Below, in pieces: positions 7,406 through 32,500 of a stretch of DNA of 64,000 nt (position 1 is the first letter of the stretch; every line of letters begins with the position of its first letter). The notes beneath the pieces were generated by a model. That model searched no databases. It was not told the DNA's origin and worked only from the letters and a program-made list of their open reading frames with translations. The DNA is from Yuukianura sp. NJ FZ-2021 (taxonomy: Eukaryota). The stretch lies in NCBI GenBank assembly GCA_046563655.1, contig CM102285.1:5828001-5892000 (forward strand), written 5' to 3'. The position numbers and the translations under genes were made by a program.

Positions 7406-7454
7406 TAATTTTTCCAATTTTCAACAGTGCTTATTCCAAACAAACTCCTAATCA

Positions 7455-10400
7455 GTGAACATGGCCTCCTCTAACAGTGAATCCCCAGTGTCATGTTCCA
7501 CTGCCTTTTTTGGACTCAATCAGCTGAGGAAGAAAATCGTTCGTTTTCAAACAACTCTCTCTCCCAGTGTTTGGAAACCAACCAGTATCCCCGAACTTTC
7601 AGTGAAAGAAGGCAAGTTCACTGAACTAAAAAACGAACTCAACTTCTTCCAGCAACATCTCCAGCGCATCTTCGGTGCTTCGGAAGAAGACAAGGATAAG
7701 TCGTGGATAGACGTAGAGGATATCACAAATGACTGCGAAGACCTCTTCGAAACGATTCATCTCGTCCTTCTGTCTACTCGTGAGTCTCTTTCACCGAAAA
7801 ATCAGTCATCAGTTCCTAGAGTTGACACTAATCCGAATTTTGAATCTGAGTTTCGCCTGGAGAAGACGAAACCTCCGACTTTCTCCGGCAAGTACACCGA
7901 ATGGCAGAGCTTCTCCGATCTTTTTCATGTTGCTGTCATCAACAATCCGAAGATTTCCGGCGGACTGAAGCTCGTCTACTTGAAGAACAGTCTCGTCGGG
8001 GACGCAGCATCAATCGCCAGTCAATTTCCCTCCACTAACATCAGCTTTCAAGATGCCTGGGACTTAGTGGAGAAACGTTACTACAAGAAACGGGAAATCG
8101 TCTTCGCTCATCTCCAGAAGCTGTTTTCACTGCCTTCAGTTCAAGACACAACTAAAGGTATTCTCACGCTAATCGACACCATAAATTCATGTTTGAAGAA
8201 TCTGGAGCTACTTGAAGTCAACGTTGATTCTTGGGATGTTTTTGTTGTCTACTGGGCCCATTTGAAGTTAGATCCAGAGACAAGGAAGCAGTGGCTACTC
8301 AACACAGATGACGAACTACCTCAACTCACTCAATTCCTTTCATTTCTTGAAAAGAGAGCCGACGCCCTCAATTCCAGATCTACTGAAAAGGAAAAACCGA
8401 AGTCATCTTCAGCGTCATCTGCTCATCATGTCACCACTCCAGATCCAGGAAACAAGAAACGCTGTCCGAAATGTGACGGAAGTCACAAAATCTACTCCTG
8501 TTCAAAATTCCTGGAATTGACACCGCATGAACGTACAGCCTTCGCCAAGCAGAAGAAACTTTGCATCAACTGCCTGGGAAGTCATTCGACCAGAGATTGC
8601 AAGAGTACGATTGTGTGTCAGAAGTGCTCAAAACCACATCACACACAATTACATTTTGAATCCCGGTCAACTCCCGCCTCAACCACTTCACCGTCAACTT
8701 CAACCTCAAATTCAGGTCAACGTTCCGCTCAAGTTGAAAGTTCATCAAGGCCACTTCACCCGGATGCTTTCACTACTCCACCTCCACAGAATGTCCATAT
8801 TGGCTCTCATCACTCGTCATTTCCGTCTCCGGTTTCAAGTGACAAGACCATTCTTATGGCAACACTCCTCGTGAACGTCGTCGATTCTTCTGGCGACACT
8901 CAAACCTGCCGCGTGTTTCTCGATCAGGGATCAGAAACAAACTTCGTCTCCGAGTCTCTTGTGGCTCGACTCTCACTCCGTCGCCAGAAAACCTGTGTCA
9001 CGGTTACTGGAATCGGAGGTCAAGGAGAAAGTGTCGCTCGAGGAATTGTAAGTCTCGACTTACATTCCACTGTCTCTAATTTTTCTCTCTCTATTAAGGC
9101 ACTCATCCTTCCGAAAATCACTGGGAATCTGCCAAGAAGTTCCTGCCAAAGTCAGTTTCATCATCTCATGGGACTTTCGCTGGCAGATCCTACATTTCAT
9201 CAACCGTCTTCAGTGGACATTTTGCTTGGAGCAGAAGCCACTTCTCAACTTCTTCTTCCTGGACTACGGGTTGGACCCCCAGGAACCCCCACAGCTCAAC
9301 ACTCAAGATTTGGCTGGTTTCTGACTGGAAGTGCCCCCTTAAGCCAGGTGCACACCCCCAGTCTCCATGTGACTGTATGTCATTCTTCTTGCGTCGTGGA
9401 TGAGCAGTGTCTGGACTCTTCACTTCGTCGTTTCTGGGACTTGGAAGATCCAGCACCACTCTCACCTCAACTCTCGTCTGTAGAGCAAGCAGTCGATGAC
9501 CACTTCCTCAAGACTTTTGCTCGTGACTCCGATGGCAGGTACGAAGTATCCTTACCATTCATCAACTCTGGGGAGTTGGGAGATTCAACTTCAAAAGCCG
9601 TTTCCTGCTTCAAATCTCTCGAGAAGCAACTCAACAAGGATCCTGTTCTCAAAGCAGCCTACCACACCCAAATCAAAGACTACTTGTCAAAAAACTGGGT
9701 TCAAAAAATTCCAGCTGCAGAACTTTCAACTCCGAAAATCGAAGTACACTCAATCGATGGGGAGAAAATGGAACTTCGTCCATTCTACCTCCCTCATCAC
9801 GTCGTTGTCAAACCAGACAACACCACAACGAAATTTCGGATTGTCTTCAACGCTTCTTCGAAAACAAACACCGGACTTTCCCTCAACTCCGTTCTCCATC
9901 CTGGACCGAAAATTCAAACGGATCTTCATCCGCTCCTAACCCGGTTCAGAAGTCACAAAATCGCACTTTCAGCCGATATTGTTAAATTTTACAACCAGGT
10001 GAAAGTTAATCCCTCTCATTGTGACTTTCAGCGATTTCTTTGGAGAAAGGAGCAGACGGACCCTCTACTTCACCTTCGTTTTCTTCGCGTCACCTTCGGC
10101 GTCACTTCAGCCCCATTCTTAGCCATTCGGGTTCTGCGTCAACTTGGAGAAGATTTCAAGGCTGACTTTCCCCTGGCTCACCATTCAACTCAAAATGATT
10201 TCCTGGTCGACAATCTTTTGTCTGGAGCTTCAACACTGGAAGAAGCCCTGGAAATCAAGAATCAGATCACCTCTCTTCTCGCCCTGGGAAGATTCCCACT
10301 CCAAAAGTGGGCCTCGAATCATCCTGAAGTCGTCAACTCACTCTCACCGGGTGAAAGTGAGAACATCTCTCTGGACATTCAACTGGATGAATCCATCAAG

Positions 10401-12863
10401 ACAATCGGCTTGTACTGGCATCCAGCTTCTGACACTTTCGGGGTGAAAGTCGTCTCACCTCCACCATTTGTGACCACCACCAAAAGAGAAATCCTTTCTC
10501 ACGTCGCCCGAGTTTTCGATCCTCTCCAGTGGCTGGCTCCTGTCACCATCACCTCTAAAATTCTTCTTCAGGCCCTCTGGAAGGAGAAACTCGGCTGGGA
10601 CGACCCAATTCCCGAAAATTTCGCCAGAAAATGGAGGAAGTACTCTACGGAACTGGAACTTCTTCAAGATTTTCGGATTCCCCGCTGCCTCACTTTCACC
10701 TCGTTCACCAATTCGTCTGATGTGACCTTTGACCTCGTCGGATTCTGTGACGCTTCCAATGTCGCCTATGCTGCTTGCGTCTACCTCAGGTCAAAGTGTC
10801 AAGCTGAAAGTGACCCAGTCAAGGTCACACTCATCGCTGCGAAATCCAAAGTCGCTCCAGTTGGTGGTGAAACCACCCCTCGTCTTGAACTGTGTTCAGC
10901 AGTACTTCTCTGTCAGCTTGTGAACACAGTACACTCCGCCCTTACTCCAACCAAGATTCAAATTTCTTCAGTGAGCTGTTTCACCGATTCAACTGGCGCT
11001 CTGGGACAAATCTTTTCAAAGGAAAAACAGCCAGTGTTCGTCGCAAACAGAATTCGCAAAATCAAGCTCTCACCAGTCTCCATCCAGTGGTTCCATGTTC
11101 CTGGAGAAATCAATCCCGCGGATTCATGTTCCCGTGGAATTTCTCCGCTCAACTTTTTGCAAAATCTTCAGTGGCTGCAAGGACCACCTTTCCTTCTCAC
11201 TGAAGAGATTCCACCTCAACCGTATTCGGAGTCAGTGGCTACTTTCTCTACCTTCGTTGATCCGGGGAAAGCATTCGTCCACGACTGCCTCATCAATTTC
11301 ATCTCCAAAACCTCATCATTTTCAAAGATGAAGCGGCTCCTGGCCTACTGGGTTCGTTTTCAGAACAACCTCAGGAAGGGAAAACTGCCGATGTTTGGAC
11401 CGCTCACCTCTCAAGAACTCAAGATTTCTCAAATTTCTTTGGTGAAAACAATTCAACAACTCTCACTTTCGGCTGAAGTCGACCGTTGTTCCAGGATGAA
11501 GCAAGTCAAGTGCGAAATTCGCTTTCTCTCTCCGTTCGTTGACTCAGATGGAATCCTTCGTGTTGGTGGACGCATGCAGATGTCGGCACTCAACTTCGAC
11601 AATCGTCATCCGATTCTTCTGCCGAAATGCCACACCCGTCCATCTACTCCAGCAGAAAAAATCGCAAGTCACTTCGCACTCTGCGTCGCTCGTGACTTTC
11701 ATCTCCGAAATCTTCACGCCGCACCAAAATTGCTGCTTGCTCTCCTCCGTGCAGAATTTTGGATTCCAAGAGCTCAAAATTTGTGCAGCAGAGTCTTCCG
11801 TTCCTGCATCTTCTGCTTCAAACAGAATCCGCAGCCTGCTACACAAATCATGGCTCCTCTTCCGTCATCTCGCATTACCCCAGACTTTCCATTCATCAAA
11901 GTGGGACTGGACTACGCAGGCCCATTTGAAATCGCAGCCACTCCCGGACGCAAACCACGCCTCATCAAAGCTTATGTCTGCGTCTTCGTCTGTATGACCA
12001 CCAGGGCCATACATCTGGAATTTGCTGGTGGACTCTCTACTGAAGATTTCATTGCCGCTTTTCATCGCTTCTGCTCCATTCGGAATTACCCCTCAGACAT
12101 CTACTGCGACGGTGGGAAGAATTTCCTTGGAGCAAAGAATGAAATGGAAGCGCTCAAAACCCTACTCGCAAGTCCAGAACATCAAGCCAAAGTAGCCCTC
12201 TTCTTCACTGGAGAAAGTGTCAACTACCACTTCTCTCCACCTTACGGACCTCATCATGGCGGACTTTGGGAAGCTGCTGTGAAGAGCATGAAGCTCCACC
12301 TCTCCAGGGTCATCCAAGGTCACCACATCTCGATTGAAGAGTTCATCACACTTCTGGCTCGGACTGCTGCTGCTCTAAACTCTCGACCTTTGACCCCACT
12401 CTCCAACAATCCGGATGACTTCGAAGCAATCACTCCATTCCACTTTCTCTCGCTTCGCCCTCCGAAGTTCATTCCGGAAGTTGACGTCACCTCTCACAAA
12501 TCTCATCGCACTCGCTGGGAATTGGTGCAGCAGATGACTCAGCATCTCTACAAACGCTGGACTGCAGACTTTCTCCAATCTCTCCAGCAGCGCAACAAAT
12601 GGCTGGACCCGCAACCAAACATCGAAGTCGGAATGATGGTGCTCCTCCAGGACGTGGACCAGTCATTCAAACACCGACATTGGATTTTGGGCCGAATCGA
12701 CGCTGTCTTCCCTGGACCAGACGGAAAAGTCCGAACGTGCGACGTCCGAGTTCCAGTCCAAGGAGACGAGAAGTTCGCCACCAAGGTCTTCCGTCGCCCC
12801 ATCACTCGAGTTTCTCCACTTCCTCTTGATGAAGACGTCACCGAAGCCTTCATTTCACTGTAG
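7455..12863 (+). CDS. BEL/Pao Gag-Pol polyprotein (DUF1759-type gag, Cys/His knuckles, protease, RT, RNase H, integrase)
   Basis: PTFSGKYTEWQSF, three knuckles (CPKC..H...C, CINC..H....C, CQKC...HH), protease LDQGS, RT YLPHH/FNAS/SADI/FGVTSAPF/LVDN, RNase H FCDAS/PRLEL/FTDS, integrase DYAGP/CDGGKNF/GGLWEAAV. PR-RT-RH-IN order. Confidence 0.96.
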   Translation: MNMASSNSESPVSCSTAFFGLNQLRKKIVRFQTTLSPSVWKPTSIPELSVKEGKFTELKNELNFFQQHLQRIFGASEEDKDKSWIDVEDITNDCEDLFETIHLVLLSTRESLSPKNQSSVPRVDTNPNFESEFRLEKTKPPTFSGKYTEWQSFSDLFHVAVINNPKISGGLKLVYLKNSLVGDAASIASQFPSTNISFQDAWDLVEKRYYKKREIVFAHLQKLFSLPSVQDTTKGILTLIDTINSCLKNLELLEVNVDSWDVFVVYWAHLKLDPETRKQWLLNTDDELPQLTQFLSFLEKRADALNSRSTEKEKPKSSSASSAHHVTTPDPGNKKRCPKCDGSHKIYSCSKFLELTPHERTAFAKQKKLCINCLGSHSTRDCKSTIVCQKCSKPHHTQLHFESRSTPASTTSPSTSTSNSGQRSAQVESSSRPLHPDAFTTPPPQNVHIGSHHSSFPSPVSSDKTILMATLLVNVVDSSGDTQTCRVFLDQGSETNFVSESLVARLSLRRQKTCVTVTGIGGQGESVARGIVSLDLHSTVSNFSLSIKALILPKITGNLPRSSCQSQFHHLMGLSLADPTFHQPSSVDILLGAEATSQLLLPGLRVGPPGTPTAQHSRFGWFLTGSAPLSQVHTPSLHVTVCHSSCVVDEQCLDSSLRRFWDLEDPAPLSPQLSSVEQAVDDHFLKTFARDSDGRYEVSLPFINSGELGDSTSKAVSCFKSLEKQLNKDPVLKAAYHTQIKDYLSKNWVQKIPAAELSTPKIEVHSIDGEKMELRPFYLPHHVVVKPDNTTTKFRIVFNASSKTNTGLSLNSVLHPGPKIQTDLHPLLTRFRSHKIALSADIVKFYNQVKVNPSHCDFQRFLWRKEQTDPLLHLRFLRVTFGVTSAPFLAIRVLRQLGEDFKADFPLAHHSTQNDFLVDNLLSGASTLEEALEIKNQITSLLALGRFPLQKWASNHPEVVNSLSPGESENISLDIQLDESIKTIGLYWHPASDTFGVKVVSPPPFVTTTKREILSHVARVFDPLQWLAPVTITSKILLQALWKEKLGWDDPIPENFARKWRKYSTELELLQDFRIPRCLTFTSFTNSSDVTFDLVGFCDASNVAYAACVYLRSKCQAESDPVKVTLIAAKSKVAPVGGETTPRLELCSAVLLCQLVNTVHSALTPTKIQISSVSCFTDSTGALGQIFSKEKQPVFVANRIRKIKLSPVSIQWFHVPGEINPADSCSRGISPLNFLQNLQWLQGPPFLLTEEIPPQPYSESVATFSTFVDPGKAFVHDCLINFISKTSSFSKMKRLLAYWVRFQNNLRKGKLPMFGPLTSQELKISQISLVKTIQQLSLSAEVDRCSRMKQVKCEIRFLSPFVDSDGILRVGGRMQMSALNFDNRHPILLPKCHTRPSTPAEKIASHFALCVARDFHLRNLHAAPKLLLALLRAEFWIPRAQNLCSRVFRSCIFCFKQNPQPATQIMAPLPSSRITPDFPFIKVGLDYAGPFEIAATPGRKPRLIKAYVCVFVCMTTRAIHLEFAGGLSTEDFIAAFHRFCSIRNYPSDIYCDGGKNFLGAKNEMEALKTLLASPEHQAKVALFFTGESVNYHFSPPYGPHHGGLWEAAVKSMKLHLSRVIQGHHISIEEFITLLARTAAALNSRPLTPLSNNPDDFEAITPFHFLSLRPPKFIPEVDVTSHKSHRTRWELVQQMTQHLYKRWTADFLQSLQQRNKWLDPQPNIEVGMMVLLQDVDQSFKHRHWILGRIDAVFPGPDGKVRTCDVRVPVQGDEKFATKVFRRPITRVSPLPLDEDVTEAFISL

Positions 12864-13913: not shown

Positions 13914-14970
13914 AAAACAGGAAAAAAGCAAAGCAAAAGGTTTAAAAGAGCGCTTGTTACGGAACAGTGCTTACATGGGACGACCTGTGAACCATGGATT
14001 GGCAGTTCCTTCCCAAGATGGATCCACGTATATGTAAATATCTTGGTTTCCAGTATACCCAGGAGTCGAATTCCTATCATACCGAACCAATTCTATCAAA
14101 CAACAGCATATGTTGTTTAGATTAGGCAGGCTAAATTAATTAATTTCGCTCTTACGCGTAGTGTAGTGGTTCACTCCCAGGAAGTCATAGGATCCTGAAA
14201 TATATTGATATAATATAATATATTGCATTATAAGTATATATTAATATAACATGTATAAAATATGTATCTTATTATATATTATTTACAAGTACCCCTGAGT
14301 ATTTTCTGCCACAGGGGCAGGGGGTTGAAGGTTGGCAGTCTTGACTGCGGCAGTCCCTCTGCCTTGCTCTTCCTGTCTACAAACTCCCGCATCACTTCTG
14401 GGTTGTCGCCAAAGGATAAGGGTGAGGCAATCCATCCAAACTGGAAAAAAACGAAAAAAAAATCAACATTTTGAAGAAAACTATCTTTTTCGAATTACTT
14501 TAGTTTTTATATACCTGGAATTAAAGTCCGCGTTCTGCTGCAGCGATGTCCCTCCTGTGTGTACTTCCTGGTTCGAGCCAGACGTAGTTAAGTGTGATTC
14601 CGCAGCGTCCTGCTTGTACCGGTTTGAACACTGCGTCGTACATTCTGTACGCAAATGCATGTGCTTTGAGCATTGTATGTGCGCAGCGCATGTGTATGGT
14701 TTGGTAGCGTCCTTAGTCCCCGGGGGGAATGTGCCAAGATCGTTGCTACCAGTACAGTGGATGACAGGTTCGTTGAAAGTGGCCCACGTTTTGACTCGGT
14801 CACCGAAAGTCTCGAAGGCAAAGAAAGCGTATTCCCCAAAGTACTGAACATGGTCGTCGTTCAACCAACCACCTAAGTTTTGCAGAGCGCTACATTAAAA
14901 AAAAACGAAAAAAAAAGTAAAGTTTTTGTGAAAAAAAAATTTTTGGTTTTGTTTTTTGAAAAATTGTACT

Positions 14971-15239
14971 AAAGGTTGCTAAACAAAAAAAAACTTTATA
15001 TACACCAGGTTTTTTTAACAAAAAAATATTGTCTATTTTTACACCAGGTTATCCAATAACTCCAGGGTTTTAAAATTTGTTTGAAATTGGTAAATCTACA
15101 TCTCTATGGTACTTTTTTGCATGTAATGTAAATAGGATTAAACTGGTAATAAAAGTTGTGTGAAGCAAGGTTTTTGAAAACCCTTGAGTAATTGGACAAC
15201 GTGTTGCAGGAAATACAGTTCGGTTGTCAAGGAACCTTG
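14971..15239. mobile_element. MITE of the CAAGGTT family (8-bp TSD) in a GH1 intron
   Basis: Ends AAAGGTTG...GGAACCTTG, flanks ATTGTACT/GTTGTACT, internal inverted CAGGTTRTCCAATWACT. Related to copies at 53762, 59557 and about 61370. Confidence 0.65.
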
Positions 15240-15587
15240 GTTGTACTAGAAGAAATTTTGGACGCAAACTCACTGGCAAGTCGAAGTGGTAGAGAGTCAC
15301 AACTGAAAAAACGTAGTTGAACCGATTATGGACAGGTTAGAATTTTTGATTTGGTAAAAGAACGGGCGTGTCATTCGTTGAATGCAAAAGGTTTGAAAGG
15401 AATTGGACCAAAAGTTTTGTTCCAATTTTTGTCGTTCCAATTTAGTTGATAATTTGACCCAACCTGTGTCGAACCAGTTGTTTTTGACACAATTTGTGGC
15501 TTGATACAATTGCTTTCGAACAAATTGCATTTAAAGAAAAGATAACGTGGTTGAATGTCGTGCTTTAGAAAGAGATCGATGAGGTTA

Positions 15588-15680
<93 letters not shown>

Positions 15681-16785
15681 CTAAGAAATTACATTTTTCG
15701 AAAAATACTCTTTTTTTGAAAATTTGAAATTGAAATTCAAAATTTGAAAATTACCCCCATTTTCTTGAGTAGTTTGAAATGCAAAGGGTATCTGTAATAG
15801 GAGTCGCAGGCAATGTCGCCCGTATTTCCGTCCACAACTGGACTAGGTTCTTGATGTACAAAAATGTACAAAATCGTCCCAAATACTCGGCCCGTCCCCT
15901 CAGCATTCCAACCACCTTAAAACATATTTAAAAATAAGTTTCAAAATTTTGAAACAATTTTAATAAAAGTCAAAAATTATAAAATTTGTTTATGATTTTT
16001 GTCTCTGGCGAAAGCTCTTTTGTGTTGAACTTTTACCTTCGACTTGATACGCAGACTGAAAATTCAAGAATCAAAAACACTTCAGTAAAAACATTCATTT
16101 TTTTTTAAATTAACTTCTTTCTTTGTAGTTTTTGAATTTTTTTTTTTGTTAAAAATTGAATTTTAATGTTACCGTTCCTGCCCCCCATTGGAATCTTGGT
16201 GGGAAAGTTCCTTTGAAAAACCTTCCATTGAATTGGTTGTAGTGTCGATACGATTCGTCGTGTCCCCCGACACCACGCATGCGCGAAAAACTCGCCTGGA
16301 CGCACAGGAACAACAGCAAACTGCGCATGTCTGTCATGTACGAGGTTTTGTCTGACGATATCTGCTTATGCTTACGACGTACGAATCCAACTGACGATAA
16401 TCCGTTTTCTAACGAACAACTTTGTTCTAAAATTCCTGACATGAGCCTTGTTCTAAAAAAACAGACAAGGTAAAACCCAGTTTTCTTCACAGTAGAAACA
16501 AAAACAGTTTTCTTCACCAGTTCAAAAAGAAAAGAAATTAAGCACAACCTGTCAAACCACAGTTTTTATAATGTGAACAATAGAGGTTGAACTTTGATTT
16601 GGATCAGAACCTAATTTTGGAGTAACTGAAAAAATGAACAGTCGCATTCATCTCTTTTCTTTTATTTAAAAAAAAGTTATTGAAATCTGAAACCATATTT
16701 CATAGCGTTTAGAATACTTTAAGTGGCTTATATATTATTTTTATACTAACATTTACATTTTGCTGTGTATTACAACATTGCATGT

Positions 16786-16982
16786 TCACTCCGTAGTGGT
16801 TTGATGTCTTTCGTAATGTTGTCTGAGCCTTTCCACTTTAGAACTGACAATTGTGTTACACGTAAGACACTTCTGCTTCAACATTCCGTCAACTGCCAGT
16901 TGCATGAATTTAGTCCAAACTGGATCTCTGGCTCTCCCGCATCTCCCGGCTTCTGGCCAGTTATTAGCTTCAAAATTTTCAT
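16786..16982 (-). CDS. BED zinc-finger terminal exon A
   Basis: TTGCAG acceptor; RDPVWTKF...KCLTC..VSSKVERLRQHYERH; stop. Confidence 0.75.
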
Positions 16983-19900
16983 CTGCAACAAAAAAAGTGT
17001 CAAAGTAAACCAATTTTTTTTTACAGTTCCAACTCGTTTGACAAAACTTTTCGAATCTGTTCCATATTTGTTTCAAATTTAATTTTTGAAGTTATTTTTC
17101 CCCCCGAATTAAAGTTTGTTTAAAATTTTTAATTCATGCGCTCCCTCGCACGCGGGGCTTTCACCAATGATAAAGGTGTAAAATGAATAAAACAGCAAAT
17201 AAATTCTAATTTTTCTATTACACTAAATTTATTACCAAATTTTTAGCAAACACAAAGTAATACACGGTACATACAGTACATAATTCACTTATGGAAGTGA
17301 AAAATTTAATTTTGTTTACACTTCACAGCAAAATTAGAATAGCATGTAGTGTAATATTTGTAAAACTTTACTGCATTACAAAATGATGGATTCATCGCTG
17401 CAACCGAAACGAAACCGTCATCTTACTCTGGAAGTGTTCCGGGATGAATATTTCTCAAATGGGACAACAAGTGAGAAGTAGGTCGAGTGGGTGGAAGTTG
17501 GTATCGTCTAAAAACAAAAATCATTACATATTTATACCAAATGTATATACACTTATTATATAAAAGTGAATGAAAACTAAGTTACTTGTCTGGACAGTAT
17601 TTGCAGGAAGCAAACACAGTTCCATCAATATTTTCTTCTCGGAAGTGTTCCCAAACTGGACTGCGTTTCTGCCAAACTCCTTGCTTTCGTCCTCCAGTGT
17701 TACCCAATCTTGAATCTGTTTCAATTGGAAATTCACAATTTGTCACTTTCAAAACTCCACAAATGTAACACAGATAATAAATAACCATCGAACAATTCAC
17801 CAACTCAAATCTCCGGCTAGAATAGAATCTCCACAAAATAGCCGAATAATGATCCCAGTATTTAGAAAAGAAAATTAATTTTATTAGCAGACATGCCAAA
17901 AACAGTATTACTAAAAACCCGCGAAGTACATACAACGTGTACTTTGGTATCATAAAGGACAATCATTCATCCCCGTCCATGAGGGTAATAAAAAAAATTC
18001 TGTTCAATTTGTGAAAAAAAAAACTTTTATTCTAAACTTCATTAATTTATAATAATATACAATACATTTTATAAAAACTGAAACATTTTGATGAAATATA
18101 CTACAAATAATATAATAAGTGAAGATGGTAAAAAAGGGTCGTGTTCAGTTAGTACTTTCCACAAATTCCGGGTGGTGTTTTTTTAAATGCCGCCGGAGCG
18201 GTGTTGTGCTTGCTTCTTTACCGATCTTGTGAACGCTATTACAAAAAAAATACCTTATTGAGGCCAAATTTCGAAACCACCGCTACGATTCTTTATTGTA
18301 GCTAACTTAAAATTAAAGTTAAACAAGTGAATGTACTTACAAGTCTGGACAAATGTTGCAAATGGCTGACCGTTCTTCCCCAACTTCGTTGAGATTGAAA
18401 TAGTACCAAACTGCACTGCTATGCCCACGACCCCGCTTCACTACGTTTTTGACTTCCGCTTTGCAATCTATTTTCCAAATTTGCTTAATTTAATTTTCAC
18501 ATTTTCAAAAAAATACTTACAAAAAAAAATCTGCACGACTCGCACACATCTCCGATTTTCGTGTTTTCTACTAAATACTCTGCGGTAAAAAAGTACCTAG
18601 GTATAAAAATTTGTGGAATGATAATTCAAGAAAGTTTATTTAGCCAAATTATTTTGTTACACAAAACCAAAGGAAAAATTGTCAAACATATTTAAGATAA
18701 GTATTCTGCAACTTCTCTGCCTCATATATTTCATATTCTGCGTCATGGTATCGCTGCAAGTGCCTCACCATGCCCTTAGATGAGGAGCCCCTTCCAGTAC
18801 CATGATAAACTTCAGCCATACAAAAGCATATTGCGTTCCTTGGATCCGATGCTTCCGTAAAAAATTTCCAAATAGGATTCTTAAGTCTCGCTTTCGCATT
18901 TCTTGAACCATCAACTGCAATTCAATCCAAAGACACGACACGTTGTTAAGAGTTCCCGCTTGATTTCATAGCGAACTTACTAAAAACGCTGGGCGTAAGC
19001 AGTAAAACGCAAAGTAAGTTTTTTATACCCCAGCAGTAACAATTTGCCAGACAATATTTACAATATATTTCCCATAGAATATATACATGAAATATTATGT
19101 ATTGTACCATATAGTGTATAGTGTATAATAAGTAATAGCTCTACATCCTACTCATTTACAACCGAAATCAGTAAATTCCCGATTCATCATCTTGAAAACT
19201 TATTAGTTTTAAGATGTTGCATCAATTGTCAAAAAAAGTGAGAAAAAACTCACATTGAAATATTGGAACGGTTCAACCAGACTTCGGTAGAGATTCAATC
19301 AATTGTTTCAGTCCTTGATTTCTCCTTATTAGTCTTTGACCCACAAATAAGTCTCATCACTTTTTCTTTCTCAGCAATGTAAACTTCATATTGAGCGGGA
19401 TGATAGCGCTGCAAATGCTTGACCATGTTGATGCAAGTAGATCCCCGCCCAATTCCACCACGAGAAACTCCCACAGAGCAAAAGCATGTTGTCCACTTGG
19501 GATCGTCGTGGCATTCCGTAAAGAAGTTCCAAATTGGATTTTTATTCTTCCTGGTTACCACATTTGGCGCCTCAACTGCAATTCAAAATCAAAAATACTG
19601 TTATCCTTTAGTTTCAAATCACTTCAATGTCATTTTCCAACGAATCATAATTGGATTTGGATCGCAACAATACTTTAATGTCGAAATTTCTCTGCCCCCC
19701 TCCCGCGATAGCACATAAAATCAGGAAGAATTACCTGTGGTCGCTTGATGTATGTCGTAGCTGTGGTAAATTTGTTGAAATGTGTCCTGAGCCGGCCAGC
19801 ATTAGCACTCACTTTATCACCACACAGTTGATACACTGTTAGCATTTTATACTAAGTTGATTCTGACAGTAATTTCTTCATAATTAGCTCAAACCGGGTC

Positions 19901-21675
19901 TTTCATGTAGACGATGCACTAAAGCCTACTTCTAAAGTTTACAAAAGTTCTGTTCATCACCTAATATACGTCGACAACTTAGTTGATGGAGGCGAAGGTA
20001 CTTAACCGCTAAACTAATCTTTAACCTAAATAGTACGCGGGGGTAGGGTGGGGCTACGCTTCAAACGAGTACGTCTGCCAAAATATGGACAGACAGACAA
20101 AGTCGCACGCTACGACTCGTACCCCCTGCTTCAGCTTAGATCCCGTATGGATCTGGATCGGTACTATTTCCAACATCCTACTGCAAGAAACGGGCTTGGT
20201 TTCAACTGGGATTAATTACACACCCAATTTCCGAAGTCACGTTTAACCATAAACGATTACTGTTTTTCTTAGATTCAAAGAAAACAGGACTTGTTCACTT
20301 ATTAGGTAAGATTGAAAGAGATATTGGTTACCTGTAGATGTTTCTGCAGCCGAACCACCAACCTCCGATTCCTTCTTCAGTGGGAATAAATCGACGGCGA
20401 AGTCAGCATGCTTATACCTGAGATGTCTGTGGAGAACTGTTATCCCATTTCCTTTCTTTACTTTCAAAATAGTTTGCACCCCGCCTTCATCGCAAAGTTT
20501 GCATAGTGCCGACTCCCCATTTTCCTCTCGCAAGTAGTATTTCCAGACCGGAGTTCTGGTAACAAGTTGGCCCGGTTTTGCTGGTTCCTCAGAATAGTAA
20601 TTCACAAACACCTTCCTTTCCATAGTGGAATCCTCAGTGTTCTCTTCTATTAAATGAATTATATGATTTAGATTTTGGAAGTTAGTTTTGCAGGTTTTGC
20701 ATCATTCCATCACTGTGTTAAAAAGTTGAGATACGGGTTAAGTTAACTCGTCGTATCTCAACTCCGTAAAACAGTGATGGAATCCAAATCCAAATCTAGA
20801 ACACAGATTCAGAATACCATTGTTATTCTCCCCATCAGCATCCCCAGCAGCTGTACCAGTGTCGCCTTCATCTCCAAAGGTATCAACTGGAATTGGATCC
20901 TCTTGTGGGCTAGCATTAGCATCAGAAGCAGATTCGGAATCAGATTCGCCTAAAAAAGAAAACGAACCGTTTATTACACGATGAGGAAGTGTTCAATATA
21001 GAAATTATCAAATCACGAAAACATAAATATCTAAGAAGGTAAGGTAATCTTACCATGTTCTCGATACCTAGATTTCACTTTCTTTTGACGATCCCTCCTT
21101 GCAGAGGCGCTGGAAGCTTTCCGCTTTGCGGATGATCCCTGTCTGGGTCCGGTACTCTTCAGCGGTTTCTCGGCAGTTTTGTCATCATGAGTACTCAAAT
21201 GGACGTCATTTTGCCCATCATCAGTAAACTTCAGACAGAGCCCAGTGGCAACCAGATCTGGAATGTTCTTCCAATGGGACAACACATTCTCATGAAGTGC
21301 CTGCTCTCGTTCTATCAGCTTCTTCTGAACCACGAACATTTCTGCAAGATTAAGGAATTAAGTCATATGGACTGCAATTCAAATAGCAACGTAATTATAA
21401 ACTGTGATATACTCACCATTCCTCGTTGATAAGATCTGCTGCATGATGCTCATTTTCATGTCAACTTCTGCTCGAAACTTCTTGAGTGCACTTTCGAGTT
21501 GGGACACTTTATCTTGCAATTTACCATCCTGTGTACTCCCGGAGCCGGAATCAGAAACATTCTCGTCGTTTCGTGTCTTGTCAAAACGATTCAAGGATCT
21601 CAAGCTCATCGTTCTCGAAATTAATGCTTCGTCGGAGACTTTCTTCAATCTGTTATTCGTCTTGTTCGTAAGCCC
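16786..21675 (-). CDS. Multi-exon gene: shared coiled-coil/basic/acidic 5' exons plus an array of alternative BED zinc-finger exons
   Basis: Shared exons ~21675-21417, 21341-21054 and 20949-20818 each end in a phase-1 GT donor. Six BED-finger exons downstream each begin at a phase-1 AG acceptor. Start codon not securely identified. Confidence 0.7.
17423..17715 (-). CDS. BED zinc-finger terminal exon B (small internal intron 17585-17508)
   Basis: RSPVWEHF...ASCKYC-KRYQLPPTRPTSHLLSHLRNIH; stop at 17423-17425. Confidence 0.78.
18145..18467 (-). CDS. BED zinc-finger terminal exon C (small internal intron)
   Basis: SSAVWYYF...AICNIC...STTPLRRHLKKHH; stop at 18145-18147. Confidence 0.78.
18682..18914 (-). 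CDS. BED zinc-finger terminal exon D
   Basis: KNPIWKFF...AICFC...SSSKGMVRHLQRYH; TGCAG acceptor; stop. Confidence 0.75.
19295..19575 (-). CDS. BED zinc-finger terminal exon E (paralog of D)
   Basis: KNPIWNFF...TTCFC...STCINMVKHLQRYH; TGCAG acceptor; stop. Confidence 0.75.
20243..20646 (-). CDS. BED zinc-finger exon F (terminal, or internal via a donor at 20332)
   Basis: TPVWKYY...ALCKLC...GITVLHRHLRYKH; phase-1 acceptor and a phase-1 donor ACAG/GTAACC. Confidence 0.78.
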
Positions 21676-22958
21676 TTATTAGAGAAATTGCAATTGTACG
21701 TTGCAGCTGTAAACGCAGAACGCGCGTTTATAGCTGACCACTTTCTTTCTGCGTTAGCTGGCAAAGTTCACGTAGGGATTCTAAGTTGAAATCGCACGTT
21801 TGAACTTAGAATTTTTAAACTTACAAATTCCAAGAATGGAACTTTAAAAATGGAATAGAAAAACCACCATAAGCAAGTATATCCGGTACAAGCATGCTGA
21901 AAACTTTTTACCACTTACATAAACAGGCTTATTCAACAAACTTTCAACCCCACGACCGCTAGGTCACAAAACGCTTGGAGTCAAAGGTCACACATTGACC
22001 TGGGGTAACAATATCTATGCAACTGATATACTCACTGGAAATGGTTTGACCTCTTGAGTCATACAATGTTTATATGCTGCGACTTTTGACCTTCAATTCA
22101 AAAATTAGCGCAAGTCACGCGATGACCTAGCAGTTGACCCCCGAGTGACTTTTGAACCAAAAATCAGAAATTGCAACATTTCATGAATGAGAGTATCACG
22201 CCCTTTCCAACGATATTTTTCTTGCATAAATTCACCACATAATACAATGTGGTGACCTTTGACCCTAGGTTCTCATGTTGTGCGGAATAAAAATTTGGTA
22301 GAGCTACTGTAGTAAATAAATCATAGTTATAGCCTATCAGTTCATTTATATAGATATTTTATAATACAGTATAAGGTTATATTACATTAGTATATTAATA
22401 TAAGTTATATTTATCAATTACGTCATAAATATAACTTATTATAATTAATATAATAACAATTTATTCCAATATAATTGGAAATCCAGCATCTAAAACTGAA
22501 CGTAGGTTCAAACACGCAATGGATGATTTGTACGTTCAAACTCATCCAAACTTATAAGTTTACGTACGGAGAAAGCCCTCCGCACTAGCGCCCCCTAACC
22601 CGAAAAGCTCGCGTAACTCAAAACTCCTACGTGAACACATAAGTTTACGTACGATTGCAATCTACCTATTGTTTACTGTGGTCTTTTGTTTTTCGTCAAA
22701 CTCACAACGCAACGGCTAAAATTAAACGGGCCTGACTAATTCTATGAATCTTCTGAAAACTGTGAATCCTCAGACTTTTGTCGTAACGTCTATATTGCGA
22801 CCCTATTACTTTCCAAGAAAGAGTGGGAAACACTTGCGCAGTGATGGGAAATGAAATTTAAGAATTTCCATGCCGTTGCAATTTTTGAAAAGGTCAAAGG
22901 TAAAGAATTAGTAGAACTCCCCTGAGACATCAGACTCCATTGCTCCGAAAGTTGATTT

Positions 22959-23171
22959 GGGTGAAGTAAGGCAGATGAGGAATAGGTTAATCTTCCATAT
23001 CCCCTCCCGTATGCACTCCAGTGGACCTAACTTTGATGTTGCCACTATATTCAGACGTTACCTAACCTAACCTAACATTAACAATCGGCAACATCAAACA
23101 TCGCTCCATTGGAGTGCATATCGGAGGGGATATGGAAGATTAACCTATTGCTCATCTGCCTTACTCCTGCC
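22959..23171. mobile_element. MITE with GG-starting long TIRs and 8-bp TSD (Merlin/MULE-like)
   Basis: ~65-bp imperfect TIR, TSD GTTGATTT at 22951-22958 and 23172-23179, empty site at 44977-44984, central CCTAA repeats. Confidence 0.9.
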
Positions 23172-23990
23172 GTTGATTTAACTCAAAGTTATTTTACAGT
23201 TTAATTAGTATTAGGATTGATTGAATTTTTAGGAATTTAATACAAGTTTTTATTAAAAACTGTTTTTTAAACATACTTTGAGAACTTAAATTGTGTATCT
23301 AAGTCTCCATTCGAAAAAGTATACGATATTCACCATGTCAGGAAAGTAAAAACATACCAAAGACTTCCGTCGAGAAGCGAGGAACTTACAAAATAATCTG
23401 ATAAATCAATAAATATTTATAGAAAAGTGTTAAAAAAAATAGTTATTTATTATCGGAGTCGGAGTAGTCACAAGACTTTGGATCAGAACGGCGCTTTTGT
23501 ATTTTAGCGAAGCCCTTGCCACCGGGATTTTGACGGCGTTTTATAAATTGATTATTTTTACCCCGGAACTGGAGGAAATGACGTTTCTTTGCCCCCTTTC
23601 CAATTATGTGATGGGTTGTGTGTGGGCATCTACAACGTTAGACTTTGTATCGTTCTCGAATCGGTTCTGAGCAACTGGCGAATTTACCCCATATCACTTC
23701 ATCCTGTGGAATGGGAATCCGACTACGCACTTTGACCACACCTTTGCCAGAGGTGTTGCATTGGATAAACCGTACGTTCCGGACTTGAGCCTATAATCAT
23801 TATAGGCGTGGTTGATAAATCTTAAGAGATTCCCGCGCTGCCTGGCATCGATGTAGTTGTTACCTTCTACCGGAAGTAAGTAGTTGGTCAAGACTAGAGA
23901 TAACAGAAAATTGTCAAAAATTGATTTCTGTCGAGCAATTGTTCGGAGTGATTAGAATGTTTCATTTCAAGGAATGAAAAGGGCATTAAC

Positions 23991-24411: not shown

Positions 24412-24494
24412 TAGCTAAATCCAGTTAAGCAGAATAAGTTTTTTTTGAGTGAAAGCAGTTAAGCAGTTAATTGACTCTTTTGTTTCCATCAAAA

Positions 24495-27400
24495 ATGGCA
24501 TCAACGAAAACATCGGTGAAAGTGGTCAAGTTGAAAGACGATAACTATGACCACTGGAGGCTTCAAGTCTCCCTTGTGTTAAAAGCAGCCAAGTTGTGGG
24601 ACGTGGTGGTTGGCAACGCCGTACGACCCGCAGAAGCAGCCGAGGATTGGGATCAAAAGGACGTAGAAGCACAGTCCATTCTGGTCTCCACCCTCGATCA
24701 AAAGCAAACAAATCACATCGGAAAAGCCAAGACTGCAAAAGAAATTTTTGACACTCTTGAGAAATACCATTCCGATCACAGTGCCTTAAACAAACAGCAT
24801 ACTCTCGCGGAATTTTTAAACTTCAAAGTGAAGCCAAATCAACAACTAACTGACATCTTTTCAGCTGTAGAGAAGCTTCAAAGCAACCTGAATAAGATGG
24901 GAGTTACCATCGACGACGCAACTTGCATTACAAAAATAGTAAGTTCGTTACCCGATAATCCTCATAAGGCATTTAAGAAAGCTTGGGACTCAGTCCCAGA
25001 TGACTCACAAACAATGGAGATACTTCATTCCAGACTAAAGAAGGAAGATCTGGAGCTTAAGACAAAGTCTGAGGCTTCAACTTCAGCCACTCCAAAAGAA
25101 AATGTGAAAGCTTTCCATTCTCAGGGAAGTGGTGAAAGTCATAAGCCCAACAATGGTGGACATAAAGGTAAAAACATTGCTGAACTTAAAAAACGCACAA
25201 ATTGTGCCAAGTGTGGTTTACGGGGTCACTGGGCAAAAGAATGCAAAACACCCACTGGAAAGCCAGTTCAGCCAAAAGTGAAAGCCACAAACAATGTGAA
25301 TGCCTTTATGACCGTTGAAAGTGAAAGTGAGTGTAGTGATATGTGGATCTGTGACTCCGGTGCGTCACAACATATCTGTGGACAGAAGGATTGGTTAAGT
25401 GACTTTTCAGTTTTTGAGGAGCCAGCAGAAGTTACACTGACAGACAAGAGAAAAGTCCAAGCAATAGGACAAGGTGAGGTTCCAATTCTTGCTTATGCAC
25501 AAAATGGTTGGGTGAACTGTATTATACAAAACGTTTGGTACATTCCGGGAGCCATGAATCTCTTTTCTGAGTCTGTGATGACGAAGAAGGGATTCACAAT
25601 TGTTAAAAATAACAAAACAGTGAAATTCACTCACCCGGAGGGAAGAATTTGTCCGAGTGCAACTTTTAAAAGAAACATGTACGTCATGGACTTCAAACGA
25701 GCATCTGTTGCTATGACCTCGTTGAGTGACAGTAAAATTCACGAAAAATGTGGACACATCAATTCAGCTTACATCAACCAAACTGTCGAAAAGGGAGCAG
25801 CAATTGGTTTGGAGAAAGTGAAAGGCTCTTTCACTCATTGCCGACAGTGTCTGCTTGGAAAACAGAACCAAAAGCCGTACCCTCGAGTGAAAGTGAAAAG
25901 AGAGACAAAAGTCGGTGAAATGGTACATGCGGATTTGGCGGGAAAAATCAACCAAAAATCACTTGGTGGCTCGTCATACTTTCTTCTGCTGAAGGATGAT
26001 GCCTCAGGTTATCGAACTGTGCATTTTCTGAAGAAAAAGTCAGAAGCAGCAGATCATATTTTCGAATATGTGAGGTTCATGGAAAACCAGGTTGGTCGTA
26101 AATTAAAAACATTCAAAAGTGATTTAGGAGGAGAATTTATCTCGGAGAAAGTTAGCCAATTTTTTGCAGCTGAAGGAATTGTCCATGAGACCTCTGCCGC
26201 TCATTGTCCTCAAAGCAATGGGAAAATTGAGCGGGAAATTAAAACTGTTAAGAATATGGCCCGAACACTTCTCCAGAAGCATAATACTCCAGTATTTCTT
26301 TGGGCAGAGGCCGTGGCGACATCCGTTTACTTGTTAAACCGAATTTTAAATAAGCAGAGTCCGGAAGTTACTGCCTATGAACAAGTTTTTCAGCGAAAGC
26401 CGAATTTGGAACATTTGCAAATTTTTGGCTCACCAGCAGTTGCTCATGTGGCTTCGGTAAACCGAAGGGTTTGGGACGCAAAGAGTAAAGAATGCATTTT
26501 TGTTGGTTATGCTGCTGATCATGGGCAGTACAGACTTTATGATCCTTCCACTCGAACAATTTTTGTGGGGAGAAACGTAACATTTTTGGACAGTGAAAGT
26601 GATTCTTCTGAAGTGACAGTACGTTTGAATCATCAGCCACATGAAGTGAAAGATGAGAGTGAAAGTGAAGGGGAAGATTGGGATGAACCCGCAGGTAGTG
26701 ATCGTGGAGAAGACGATGAGGAGAAAGTTGAGCATGCAGAGGAAAGTGAAAGTGACGAGGAAGGGAGCGACGAAGAGAAAGTTGAAAATGGTGACAAGAA
26801 GGGAGTGGAGGAGACTCCTTGTAGTTCCACCCCCTCCCCACAAGTCAAAAGGACAACAGAAGGAGACCCTTCCCAGGGTCCCTCCAACAACAAAATTAAC
26901 ATCATAATAAAAACTCCCTCCGGAGATTTTGTTACTGAAGTCCCCACAGATCGCACTTCCACAATAAACCTGAGGGACAGAAGTAAACTGAAAAAACCTT
27001 CCCGTTACGGTCTGTTTGCCAATGGTTGGCAAAATTTAGCCCCATTGACCCCAGTGACCTCTGACACGACAACTTCCCATAATACCTCGCCCCAAAGTGA
27101 AAGCATGATGAACAAACAGGAAACCCTCATGGCTTTCTTCAATTTAGAATTCAGTTCAAATCACACTTTGACTGAGTTCTATGAGGAGATCAGACAGTTA
27201 GCCGAATCTCTCAACGAAATGGGAGTGAAAGTCGACGATGCCCAAACAGTGGTTCGCATTGTCGCAGCACTTCAAGATGACTCTCACTCTAGCTTTAAAG
27301 AAGCTTGGTCCAGAGTTCCAGCAGAAGAGCAGACCATGGCTATGCTCCATGATATGCTTAGAGAAGAAGAGACGAAAGTGAAAGCAGCTCAGGATGTGGG

Positions 27401-30400
27401 GGAAAATGGCCAAAATGCAATTGGGTTCCTCTCAAGTGCAAGTTCAAGTGATGGTATCCTTGAACCTAAACATTACAAGCAAGCTTTGGCGTCTCCTGAA
27501 AGAGAATTATGGGAGAAAGCCATGCAGGAGGAACTTGATAGCCATGCAGAAAACGGAACTTGGATTTTAGTTCCTCGCCCCGACAAAGTGAAAGTTCTGG
27601 ACAATAGGTGGGTATTTAAAATAAAACGGAACCCCGATAATTCGGTTCAACGCTTCAAAGCCCGTCTTGTCGTCCGTGGCTTTCTCCAGGAAGAGGGCAT
27701 TGACTTCCAGGAGACTTTCTCTCCTACATGCCGATATGAGGCGATACGTATTTTACTAGCCATCGCAGCATCTCGTGGTTTCCACATAGTTCAAGCAGAT
27801 GTTAAAACTGCTTTTCTCTATTCAGAGTTAAGTGAGCAGATTTACATGGAGCAGCCTCCTGGCTACATAGAAGGAACTGATGACGTATGTTTACTAAAAA
27901 AATCACTTTATGGGCTTAGACAAAGCCCAAGATATTGGAATCAAACTTTTTCAAACTTTTTGCAACGTTTCGAGTTTACCCCCACAGTGAGTGACAATTG
28001 TGTGTTCATCAGAAAAAGATCAGAATTTTCTGAATACTTAGCTGTGACGGTAGACGATATCCTTGTCGTCTCTCCTTCACATTCGTCAGCAAAAGAAGTT
28101 ATAGAACGGATTGGGGAGGAGTTTCAGATCACTTCAAGTGACCCGTCAACTTACGTGGGAATTCAACTAGAACGTAATATGGATGGTTCTATTCGAATCC
28201 ACCAACAAGCATATGCGCAGAGCATTTTGGAGCGATTCAATATGGCCGACTCCAAACCAGCAAACGTACCAATGCAACCAAATACCCAACTTTCTCCAGG
28301 GGGTGAAAGTCCTAAAGAGTTACCATACCGCCAGCTTATTGGAGCCTTAATTTTCCTTGCCAGGCTCACTCGACCCGACATTGCTTTCACCGTCTCAAAA
28401 CTTTCTACTTATGTGAACTCTTATGCAAAAGACCATTGGGAAGCTGCAAAGTCCCTCCTTCGCTACATTCAAGGAACAAAAACTTTTGGTCTAGTATATT
28501 CCAAAGGTGATACTTTGACCCTGAACGGCTACAGTGACAGTGACTTTGCGGGAGACACACGAGACCGAAAATCTACGAGTGGTTTTGCTTTCTTTCTTGG
28601 TGAAAGCCTAATCAGTTGGTGTTCACAGAAGCAACCGATTATAGCGTGTTCCAGCACTGAAGCCGAATATATTTCTCTTCACGATGCTGCACGAGAAACA
28701 GTCTGGATTCGTAGACTACTAAATGAACTCGGCTTGAATCAAAAGGTTCCCACAATTATCCACGTGGACAATCAAAGTGCAATTCGTCTAGCCAATAACC
28801 CAGAATTCCATAAAAGAAGCAAACACATCGATGTAAAATTTCATTTTACACGAGACCTCGTAATGACGAAAACAATTGAGGTCAAATATGTACCCTCTGA
28901 ATTCCAAAAAGCGGATATTTTGACAAAATCCATGATGAAAATCAGACATGCCAAACTGACTCAATTGCTCGGGCTGGTGGACATGCGCAGAACTCCCGTG
29001 ATTTTACAAAATTCAAAAGATGAAGAAGCAGAAGAAAAAGTTTTGCAGTTGGACAACGCAAGAGGAGTTGACCAACCCTCAACTAAGGACCCTCCAAAGG
29101 ACCCTTCAATCATAAACGCAAAAGACAAAGACAAAGGGGAAGGAGCACCAACAGAAGTGAGAGAAAAAGAAAAGGGCCAAAAATCCAATTGGAGTAATTT
29201 CGCTCACTTTTGCCTATTCTTGTCTTTGATCCTTGTCTCCACCCCTCCGTCCTTTGCAGTGACAACTAAAAATTCGCAGCCGATTCTCTGGAGACGGAGC
29301 CTAACCCCTATTACCACTGGACACAATCAAGTTCATCTGCTTATCAAGTTCGTATCTCCTTGTGACCTCCTGACGGAAGAATTAGTTCATCGTGACGTCC
29401 TTCCGTCACTCAAAGAAAAATGCGAAAAAGCCTACAGGGAATTATTTCTTGAAGAGATTGAACGGATGTGTCCACGGCATTCCAGGACGGAAGTCACACT
29501 CCAACACAATCCTAATGATGTACTAAACAGAGAGAAAAAGTTCATCATTACAGCAGCATTAATCCTCATTGCAACCCTTGTTGTTTCTGTCGCTGTGGGA
29601 GCAACGGCCTTGGGTGTGTCTATAAGCAACTCCAACAGCATCTCCGATATTCAAAGCGAATTAGCTAAACAAGAGCAGAGACTGGACGAGGAGGCTAATC
29701 GTCTGACTAGAGCAGAAATCGCAATAAATGAATTGAAGCAAAGTCTCAAATTATTGGCAATGGAAGTGAAGGTAATTGAAAGAGACTACGGCGAATTCAA
29801 AGCTACATTTGGCGATACAGTTTTTGGAATTTCCTACATTACAAATCGACTTTTGAACGGAAATCAAATCATCAAGGACGCTCGTCGCCTTTGGCTTGAA
29901 AAGAAAGTTCATCCTACGCTGTTTGACTTCTTCAATTACACACTGCCATGCGGAGACTCCTGTCCATTAAAATTCGCCTCGGCCCAGAACTGCTGGTTGT
30001 CAAGTGACAGATCAAAATTATTTATGGACTTCACCGTACCGGAAATCAATCCGGACCTACACTTAGTGAATGCAGATCCGTTCTTTCTCCTACACCAAAA
30101 GGAAAATCAAACTTGTAAAATAATTTACACCGGTCCTCAGAACGCCGTTATTTCTGATGTCCAGGACTGCATTTACGCAGTGAACGTCCATCGAGATGAT
30201 TTGATTCTAATGTCAAATGGAAAATGTGACACGATTTCTCACAATTCAGAAGCCAACAAATACTTTGCATTGGACAAATGCTTTCCACGCTCGGCTGGAG
30301 ATGCCTGGAATTTTGTTCAAATCAAACCAGCCTACGGACACTACCACATTTATTGTGCAGGGAACGAGATTTCAATTGGAGGAAGAAAGGAGCAGTGCCC

Positions 30401-31625: not shown

Positions 31626-31904
31626 GGCGGTCGCACCTCCTTCCTGGTAAGATTAATTAATTAAGATTTTAATTAATAGTGTATGCATTTCACATGCAGA
31701 ATGAGTGTGTAACCAATGGAGATTCGAATTTATTGTTGTTATATGCTAACCAAACCTAACGCGCGCCTGCGGCGCGGAGATATAACAAACAACAATCCTT
31801 GGTTTCCATTGGTTACACCACAAATTCTCATTCTGTTTATCAAATTCACACTGTTAATTAGACTCTTAATTAATTAATCTTACCAAGAAGGAGGTGTGAC
31901 CGCC
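31626..31904. mobile_element. MITE-like unit nested in the palindrome arm (mirror copy about 33722-34000)
   Basis: TIR GGCGGTCRCACCTCCTTCYTGGTAAGATTAATTAATTAAGA at both ends; no TSD seen. Confidence 0.7.
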
Positions 31905-32240
31905 GAGGAATATACGTAGTTGTTTCTGGCATTTGCGTAGTAGTTTCTTGGTGTTCTGCTGGTGCAGGACCCTTGGTGGATTTTTCGTCCAGATCGTCGT
32001 CTCGCCCGATTGCATAAGAAGAGTTATGGGGAGGAACTTCTTCTTTTTTGGATTGACAATTCCGGGTAACGGAGGATCCGGGACCTTCCGAGGCACTGAA
32101 ATCAATTTGTTTTCCGTTGACACTGATGTCGCCTAGGCAGCCTTTGTAGTACTCTTCAGATTCTGCGGAATCAACCTTCATCTGGAAGTCTGTCGGGCGA
32201 CCACCGAACAACAACGTTGATCCGGGAGAAGACAGAGAGA
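31905..32240 (-). pseudogene. Laminin-G domain C-terminal fragment plus Thr-rich hinge (mirror copy on + at about 33386-33721)
   Basis: LLFGGRP...YKGCLGDISVNGKQIDF...C followed by TTTQMPETTT, typical of the end of an LG domain and the hinge of laminin alpha chains. Confidence 0.65.
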
Positions 32241-32500
32241 TAGTGGACCAGACGGAGCATTTTATAATTATATATCTCAATATTCATCTATTGTTGCTGT
32301 TAACTGGATAAATGATTTAAATTTTTTTTCTTTATGATTTTATGATTTAAACTATTTAAAAAAAGCAAAAAGAAAAGTTTTTTCTAACTGTATCTTTTTT
32401 AGTACTTACAGAGTAAAGCATAATACTTTTTTTAATGAAAGTCTACCCTTGTAGTCGTAACGCTTTTAAGTTGTTGTACCGCTAAAAACTCTATTTGTAG

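Follow-up and report, generated by a model that had tools for sequence, protein, structure and literature searches.

Introduction

Most known examples of genes that end in a row of alternative zinc-finger exons are a small number of insect BTB genes, in which one locus gives rise to dozens of DNA-binding specificities on a self-associating scaffold. The lola gene of Drosophila has common 5' exons encoding a self-associating shared N-terminus, a BTB/POZ domain, followed by tandem alternative 3' units that carry C2H2 zinc fingers and end in their own stop codons. In mod(mdg4) a BTB N-terminus is combined with FLYWCH fingers; its more than 30 isoforms are all trans-spliced from independent promoters, and some of its units lie on the opposite strand. 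Here we describe a locus with a related layout in a 64,000-nucleotide stretch of DNA from Yuukianura sp. NJ FZ-2021 (GenBank assembly GCA_046563655.1, contig CM102285.1, positions 5,828,001 to 5,892,000), referred to below as the window. Six divergent BED zinc fingers lie in tandem on its minus strand, an arrangement first noticed by a reader working from the sequence alone (the original prediction) and confirmed by the present analysis. That reader had interpreted the fingers as alternative last exons on a shared N-terminus without a BTB domain.

The nearest described case among BED proteins, and the only such case found, is that of BEAF-32A and BEAF-32B of Drosophila. According to the part of the source available (PMC5021357), these isoforms share an identical body and differ in one DNA-binding BED finger, and the body self-associates via a leucine zipper together with a BESS domain. 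There the two alternative fingers are N-terminal and the shared part C-terminal, whereas the present locus has five 3'-terminal units and an N-terminal helix. A common donor followed by alternative 3' cassettes in tandem is described, again in the accessible part of the source, for PGRP-LC, CG42235 and Pip, where every cassette is preceded by a selector with which a docking site pairs (PMC6191721); no common docking site was found here. An array of alternative last exons with BED fingers was not found in a limited collection of the literature.

The locus resembles lola in having tandem alternative 3' units, five in number (A–E), each of which opens with a splice acceptor, encodes a zinc finger and closes with a stop codon of its own. 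It differs from lola in that no BTB domain was detected, the fingers are of the BED type, a fixed BED finger (F) is apparently part of the common region, and the alternatives number only five. In contrast to mod(mdg4), all units lie on one strand and cis-splicing would be sufficient to join them. The layout is comparable to those of lola and mod(mdg4), and it may work as they do, by isoform switching, with BED fingers and without a BTB domain.

Organization of the locus

The minus strand was read from position 21800 to 16600 of the window and each exon boundary was checked by script (Table 1). The locus is likely a single arthropod-type protein-coding gene on this strand, extending from roughly 21.7 to 16.6 kb. 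In the preferred reading, to which we assign a probability of about 0.55, this one gene has a shared region and five mutually exclusive terminal BED units that are joined to it by cis-splicing. The common region would consist of exons 1–3 and most likely exon F, and would encode a heptad helix of ~60 residues (a putative coiled coil), a basic patch resembling a nuclear localization signal (NLS), an acidic tail and a first BED finger. The donor of F would be cis-spliced to one of E, D, C, B or A; alternatively the donor of exon 3 may be used and F skipped. Each terminal unit would bring a different BED finger and its own stop codon, with a poly(A) hexamer nearby in four of the five. Coupling of acceptor choice to cleavage and polyadenylation would then produce five isoforms, or as many as ten if F is also skipped, having an identical body and differing in the C-terminal DNA-recognition finger.

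The length of exon 1 is 3n+1 and those of exons 2, 3 and F are divisible by three, so that all junctions are phase 1 and each of A–E is consequently in frame to its own stop codon from the donor of either exon 3 or F. The splice sites proposed in the original prediction were recovered throughout: the acceptors of exon 3 and of the six finger units are all preceded by AG (7/7), with the finger acceptors in phase 1, and the donors of exon 3 and F are both followed by GT, also in phase 1. The frames of A–E each read through to a stop (5/5), as had been claimed, located 8–35 codons past the last histidine. The fingers of B and C are each cut by a short GT..AG intron directly 3' of the Cx2C motif, at an identical place, a detail absent from the original prediction. 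The open frames of A, C, D and E lack an in-frame ATG 5' of the finger, and these four terminal units therefore need an upstream coding exon; in B, in-frame ATGs are present in the open frame upstream. A crude splice matrix gave no plausible phase-compatible donor past the finger in any of A–E, which ruled out the chaining of these units into one multi-BED protein. A GH1 gene starts downstream of A on the same strand (14484–14894, E = 1.2e-19), so that the array ends at A.

From the phases, the stop codons, the missing start codons and the signs of selection we infer that the terminal exons are used alternatively. Splicing would be in cis, the helix would self-associate, and the fingers would bind different DNA.

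Table 1. Exons, intron 3 and isolated intron pairings of the locus, as positions in the window.
Feature	Position	Strand	Description
Exon 1	21417..21609	-	193 nt; ATG at 21609; phase-1 GT donor ATG|GTGAGT
Exon 2	21054..21341	-	288 nt; phase 1 at both ends
Exon 3	20818..20949	-	132 nt; both ends in phase 1; acidic; weak donor ATG|GTATTC
Intron 3	20647..20817	-	folds nearly whole into one long hairpin
Exon F	20332..20646	-	315 nt; BED finger; without stop; phase-1 donor CAG|GTAACC
Terminal exon E	19295..19575	-	phase-1 acceptor ttgcag|TT; BED finger; own TGA stop
Terminal exon D	18682..18914	-	phase-1 acceptor; BED finger; own stop; paralogue of E
Terminal unit C, part 1	18341..18467	-	phase-1 acceptor; W..F and Cx2C; GT donor within the finger
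Terminal unit C, part 2	18145..18235	-	histidine pair RHLKKHH; stop
Terminal unit B, part 1	17586..17715	-	phase-1 acceptor; W..F and Cx2C; GT donor within the finger
Terminal unit B, part 2	17423..17507	-	histidine pair HLRNIH; stop
Terminal exon A	16786..16982	-	last of the array; phase-1 acceptor; W..F / Cx2C / Hx3H; stop
Isolated pairing	20793-20770 with 19697-19650	-	-20.8 kcal/mol
Isolated pairing	20195-20172 with 19717-19693	-	-27.3 kcal/mol
Isolated pairing	20248-20230 with 19288-19269	-	-21.8 kcal/mol

Two features of the introns were observed in addition. The acceptors of D (18914-18926) and E (19575-19587) share the string TGAATTGCAG, which also occurs in intron 1 (21371-21383), 31 nt 5' of the exon 2 acceptor, where an alternative acceptor is possible. 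The intron between F and E contains, on the minus strand at 19675..19851, a short open frame followed by GT whose translation (..LCGDKVSANAGRLRTHFNKF..) looks like a second finger half. This frame is possibly a decayed seventh finger exon; the resemblance is weak, was read by eye and does not include a W..F part.

Identity of the BED fingers

The BED signature consists of an aromatic W..[FY] followed by Cx2C and Hx3-5[HC]. The W..[FY] motif, two cysteines and two histidines were present with the expected spacing in all six fingers. Comparison with the Pfam zf-BED profile (PF02892, curated cut-off 20.6 bits) gave a score of 26.5 bits for D (E = 6.6e-6), which exceeds the cut-off, and 19.5 bits each for E and F (E = 1e-3), slightly below it. 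The first halves of B (17.8 bits, E = 3.4e-3) and C (15.3 bits, E = 0.021) also scored below the cut-off, and A had no Pfam match, though its W..F / Cx2C / Hx3H motifs are present. The profile thus matched D above the cut-off and four of the other fingers below it, with A left unmatched. D (18820-18870) and E (19478-19531) contain a CxC motif (C-F-C), not the usual Cx2C, and D is still the best zf-BED match.

A profile built from the fingers matched the BED domain of human ZBED2 (2djr_A) with an E value of 1.2e-4 and, more weakly, that of ZBED1, while the single fingers F and D gave no relevant match when searched by sequence against the PDB. An AlphaFold2 (AF2) model of F had a mean predicted local distance difference test score (pLDDT) of 60.5, with values of 70-82 in the core. 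When this model was searched with Foldseek, ZBED2, ZBED1 and ZBED3 were found at ranks 1, 2 and 4, with E values of 0.63-3.0, none of which is significant. The fingers are only distantly related to one another, with pairwise identities of 17-31%; the exception is the pair of D and E, which are 47% identical in amino acid sequence and lie 661 nt apart.

The BED signature was also searched as a regular expression on both strands of the window, which gave four full matches in addition to the first-half motif of B and C. The six fingers marked in this way all lie on the minus strand between 16.8 and 20.5 kb. The half-motif matched ten times in the window, six of these matches being within the fingers of the array, and 30 shuffles of the sequence produced five full matches altogether. 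The fraction of stop codons in the non-exon frames of the locus was 0.069, and the probability of the finger frames being open by chance was between 5.6e-4 and 9.7e-3 for each of the six (1.3e-3 to 9.7e-3 for A–E). The agreement of five further acceptors with the phase of the first had a probability of 0.004. The finger cluster is far beyond chance.

Comparison of D with E gave a proportion of nonsynonymous differences (pN) of 0.337 and of synonymous differences (pS) of 0.647, corresponding to a nonsynonymous to synonymous rate ratio (dN/dS) of 0.30, and both D and E have therefore been constrained since the duplication. In comparison with the closer of the relatives described below (L001), pN was 0.26 and pS 0.77 for exon 1, and 0.23 and 0.90 for F. 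For exons 1, 2 and F together the range of pN was 0.23-0.26, with synonymous sites saturated (pS 0.77-0.90). With pN so far below the saturated pS, the common exons and F are conserved coding sequence. Substitution patterns thus indicate that exons 1, 2 and F, as well as the D/E pair, are under purifying selection.

The shared N-terminal region

The product of exon 1 is a short N-terminus that leads into a conserved heptad helix, of which it contains the first half, and exon 2 encodes, in this order, the rest of the helix (VQKKLIEREQALHENVLSHWKN), an acidic stretch and the basic NLS-like patch. The helix spans the junction of exons 1 and 2 and was examined as two halves, together with a heptad count. 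Residues 33-90, covering the end of exon 1 and the start of exon 2, are free of proline and glycine, and a count by script over residues 29-60 found hydrophobic residues at seven of eight a/d positions. The AF2 model of exon 2 contained a helix at residues 2-24 with a pLDDT of about 90, the rest being of low confidence. This helical stretch is the most conserved portion of the protein. Residues 126-160 have a net charge of +11 and form the basic patch, and exon 3 has a net charge of -13. The coiled-coil, basic and acidic character attributed to the shared part in the original prediction is consistent with the heptads and with both charged regions, the coiled coil itself being putative. We infer that the common part may act as a coiled-coil self-association module joined to an NLS and an acidic region.

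Searches of exons 1-3 against Pfam found neither a BTB domain nor any other family with an E value below 0.01, and no BESS domain was detected by Pfam. The start codon of exon 1 and the MSL sequence that it opens are conserved in L001. No frame that looks coding lies between exon 1 and 24.4 kb upstream of it in the window, and a copia-type element follows from 24.5 kb. On these grounds the shared N-terminus was found, as originally proposed, to be free of a BTB domain.

Relatives of the gene

Relatives were sought among metagenome contigs, where an alignment-based scan gave three loci from 119 pattern matches. The closer of the two described here, L001, is 55-64% identical to the gene and contains exon 1, which also opens with MSL, followed by exon 2, an acidic exon 3 and an F-type finger exon with a GT donor; the contig stops 400 nt past F. 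The intron following F in L001 is filled with a tandem repeat of ~40 nt (..gtgagcctggaaatcaca..; 2380-2727, plus strand) that reaches the end of the contig. The more distant relative, L002, contains the same four exons, followed by an intron of 99 nt and a terminal BED exon that ends in a stop codon of its own, all introns being in phase 1. Across the window, L001 and L002 there are 21 invariant columns in exon 1, and acidic counterparts of exon 3 occupy the same place in both relatives. The amino acid identity of F is 64% to its counterpart in L001 and 39% to that in L002.

In both relatives F is kept as an internal, donor-bearing exon after exon 3, and in L002 it is flanked by short introns. 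Because of this F is probably a constitutive first finger in the common region and not an alternative, and the number of alternatives would therefore be five (A–E), not six. If F is constitutive, most isoforms would carry two fingers. The proposal of an array of alternative BED last exons without a BTB domain fits the anatomy, and nothing was found to contradict it, except that the inclusion of F among the alternatives is probably incorrect in view of L001 and L002.

A HMMER scan with exon 2 gave 12 matches at E <= 1e-3, ten of which were fragments of open reading frames (ORFs) from metagenomes with lengths of 70-156 amino acids. These ten share the motif VQKKLLEREQxLYxxLLxHWKN. The matches P0001 and P0005 were rejected as spurious, the former being a repeat protein of 2848 amino acids with no matched stretches and the latter a protein of 711 amino acids with 23% identity in eight stretches. 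No longer protein containing exon 2 was found among 137 candidates and none containing exon F among 261 candidates, and a search of the ESM Atlas with exon 2 gave no usable match. Only short ORF fragments were recovered for the common part, an annotated full-length homologue not being found, and public protein sets seem to lack this gene family.

Splice and 3'-end signals

Poly(A) hexamers follow four of the terminal units. AATAAA is located 42 nt past the stop codon of D, 114 nt past that of C and 120 nt past that of A, and the stop codon of B is followed by ATTAAA after 113 nt and by AATAAA after 190 nt. Nine hexamers were counted in the 1949 nt after the terminal units, compared with a density of 1.39 per kb over the whole minus strand. 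The acceptor of A has a good pyrimidine tract.

Intron 3 is exceptionally stable in its folding and contains an inverted repeat with arms of 32 nt that are 88% complementary. Its minimum free energy was -58.8 kcal/mol (z = -9.1), and none of 200 shuffled sequences was equally stable. The hairpin is unique within the window and is not conserved, the corresponding intron of L001 having a z of -0.8 and that of L002 being merely 60 nt long. The hairpin would bring the weak donor of exon 3 beside the acceptor of F. The intron between F and E as a whole is not unusual in structure (z = -0.73).

Alternative explanations

Several results weigh against the preferred reading. The best F donor of L001 is one base out of phase. 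In L002, an in-frame TGA interrupts the terminal BED exon (1543-1760, plus strand) between its W..F and Cx2C motifs; the exon could be a pseudo-exon, or the TGA a polymorphism or a sequencing error, and it can also be read as a sign that the terminal finger is dispensable or decaying in a relative. A profile of D and E found no relatives of this finger among three candidates from proteins of similar length. Neither AATAAA nor ATTAAA occurs within 380 nt past the stop codon of E, and the polypyrimidine tracts are poor at the acceptors of C (0.29) and B (0.47). Finally, no common dock and selector site was found for the five upstream regions beyond the level of shuffled controls: the best dock candidate paired with four of five selectors at a helix length of 11, which was matched by four of 40 shuffles, and a duplex run gave z values from -2.1 to +2.2 with unrealistically long duplexes. 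Profiles in windows of 24 nt detected isolated pairings only (Table 1).

Some of these results would also be accounted for if the layout were the same and only some of the terminal exons were still used, such as E, which is proximal, or D and A, whose signals are good, with the remaining units being recent or degenerating copies that are seldom if ever spliced. The weak acceptor tracts of C and B, the stop codon in the terminal finger of L002 and the lack of D/E relatives among the three candidates are all consistent with this, as are the missing zf-BED match of A and the finger-like relic in the F-E intron. Set against it are the five frames, all of which are open at the low chance probabilities given above, and the zinc ligands, which are intact in every finger, as are the GT..AG introns inside B and C. 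The dN/dS of 0.30 for D and E argues in the same direction, and the fingers are old, at 17-31% identity, yet intact. Partial use is thus regarded as unlikely, while remaining the strongest competitor of an array in which all five units are spliced.

Splicing in trans, with units transcribed from their own promoters and joined to a common 5' transcript, is more doubtful again. The anatomy is equally compatible with it, every unit opening with an acceptor, and in-frame ATGs precede the acceptor of B. In the parts of the sources available, all mod(mdg4) mRNAs are made in this way (PMC13490949, PMC6237743). Here, all units lie on the same strand, downstream of the common exons and within 3.6 kb, so that splicing in cis suffices, and no sign of internal promoters was seen in the analysis.

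A hAT transposase consists of a BED finger followed by a DDE/RNase-H-like catalytic body and a hAT dimerisation domain. A reading in which the fingers lie outside the upstream gene, as unconnected relics of hAT-type transposons or as small genes in their own right, is very improbable: BED fingers are typical of hAT transposases and the window is rich in mobile elements (Pao-type and copia-type retrotransposons), but the original observation that no transposase body follows any finger held, the longest stop-to-stop frame in 15000-23000 being 152 amino acids and below transposase size, and the uniform strand, uniform phase-1 acceptors, own stop codons, missing start codon in four of five units, purifying selection and the order of F and then a terminal finger in L002 all speak against it.

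An array of five cis-spliced terminal BED units thus remains the preferred reading. More tentatively, the gene could represent a new family of isoform-switching architectural or transcription factors, in which a coiled-coil N-terminus takes the place of the BTB domain and a fixed BED finger is combined with one of several interchangeable, transposase-derived BED fingers, the logic of lola and mod(mdg4) having been re-invented several times in the lineage; this broader proposal is possible and falls short of being probable. If it is true, the logic of exchangeable finger ends would not depend on BTB, and transposase-derived fingers could be recruited in series as exchangeable modules. The locus would also offer a compact system of five units in which to study the choice of terminal exons.

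Other features of the window

Genes of arthropod type are present in the window, as are retroelements of the Pao and copia types. Its plus strand contains two intact open frames of great length, one of 1803 amino acids at 7452-12860, of a Pao/BEL-type retrotransposon, and one of 2112 amino acids at 24471-30806, of a copia-type element. The copia-type frame extends about 800 amino acids past the polymerase, and this tail resembles a membrane protein.

Similar frame fragments (..IDARQRGNL..FINHA.., ..RCRCPHTTHHIIGKGA..) flank the locus on both sides, at 5358-5771 and 23443-23951 on the minus strand. One copy was searched and gave no Pfam match at 1e-5; the fragments look like a dispersed repeat. 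A second pair of frames, for which the one copy tested matched no Pfam family, encodes near-identical products of 137 amino acids at 31870-32283 (minus strand) and 33343-33756 (plus strand). These frames lie about 1.1 kb apart in opposite orientation and form an inverted duplication.

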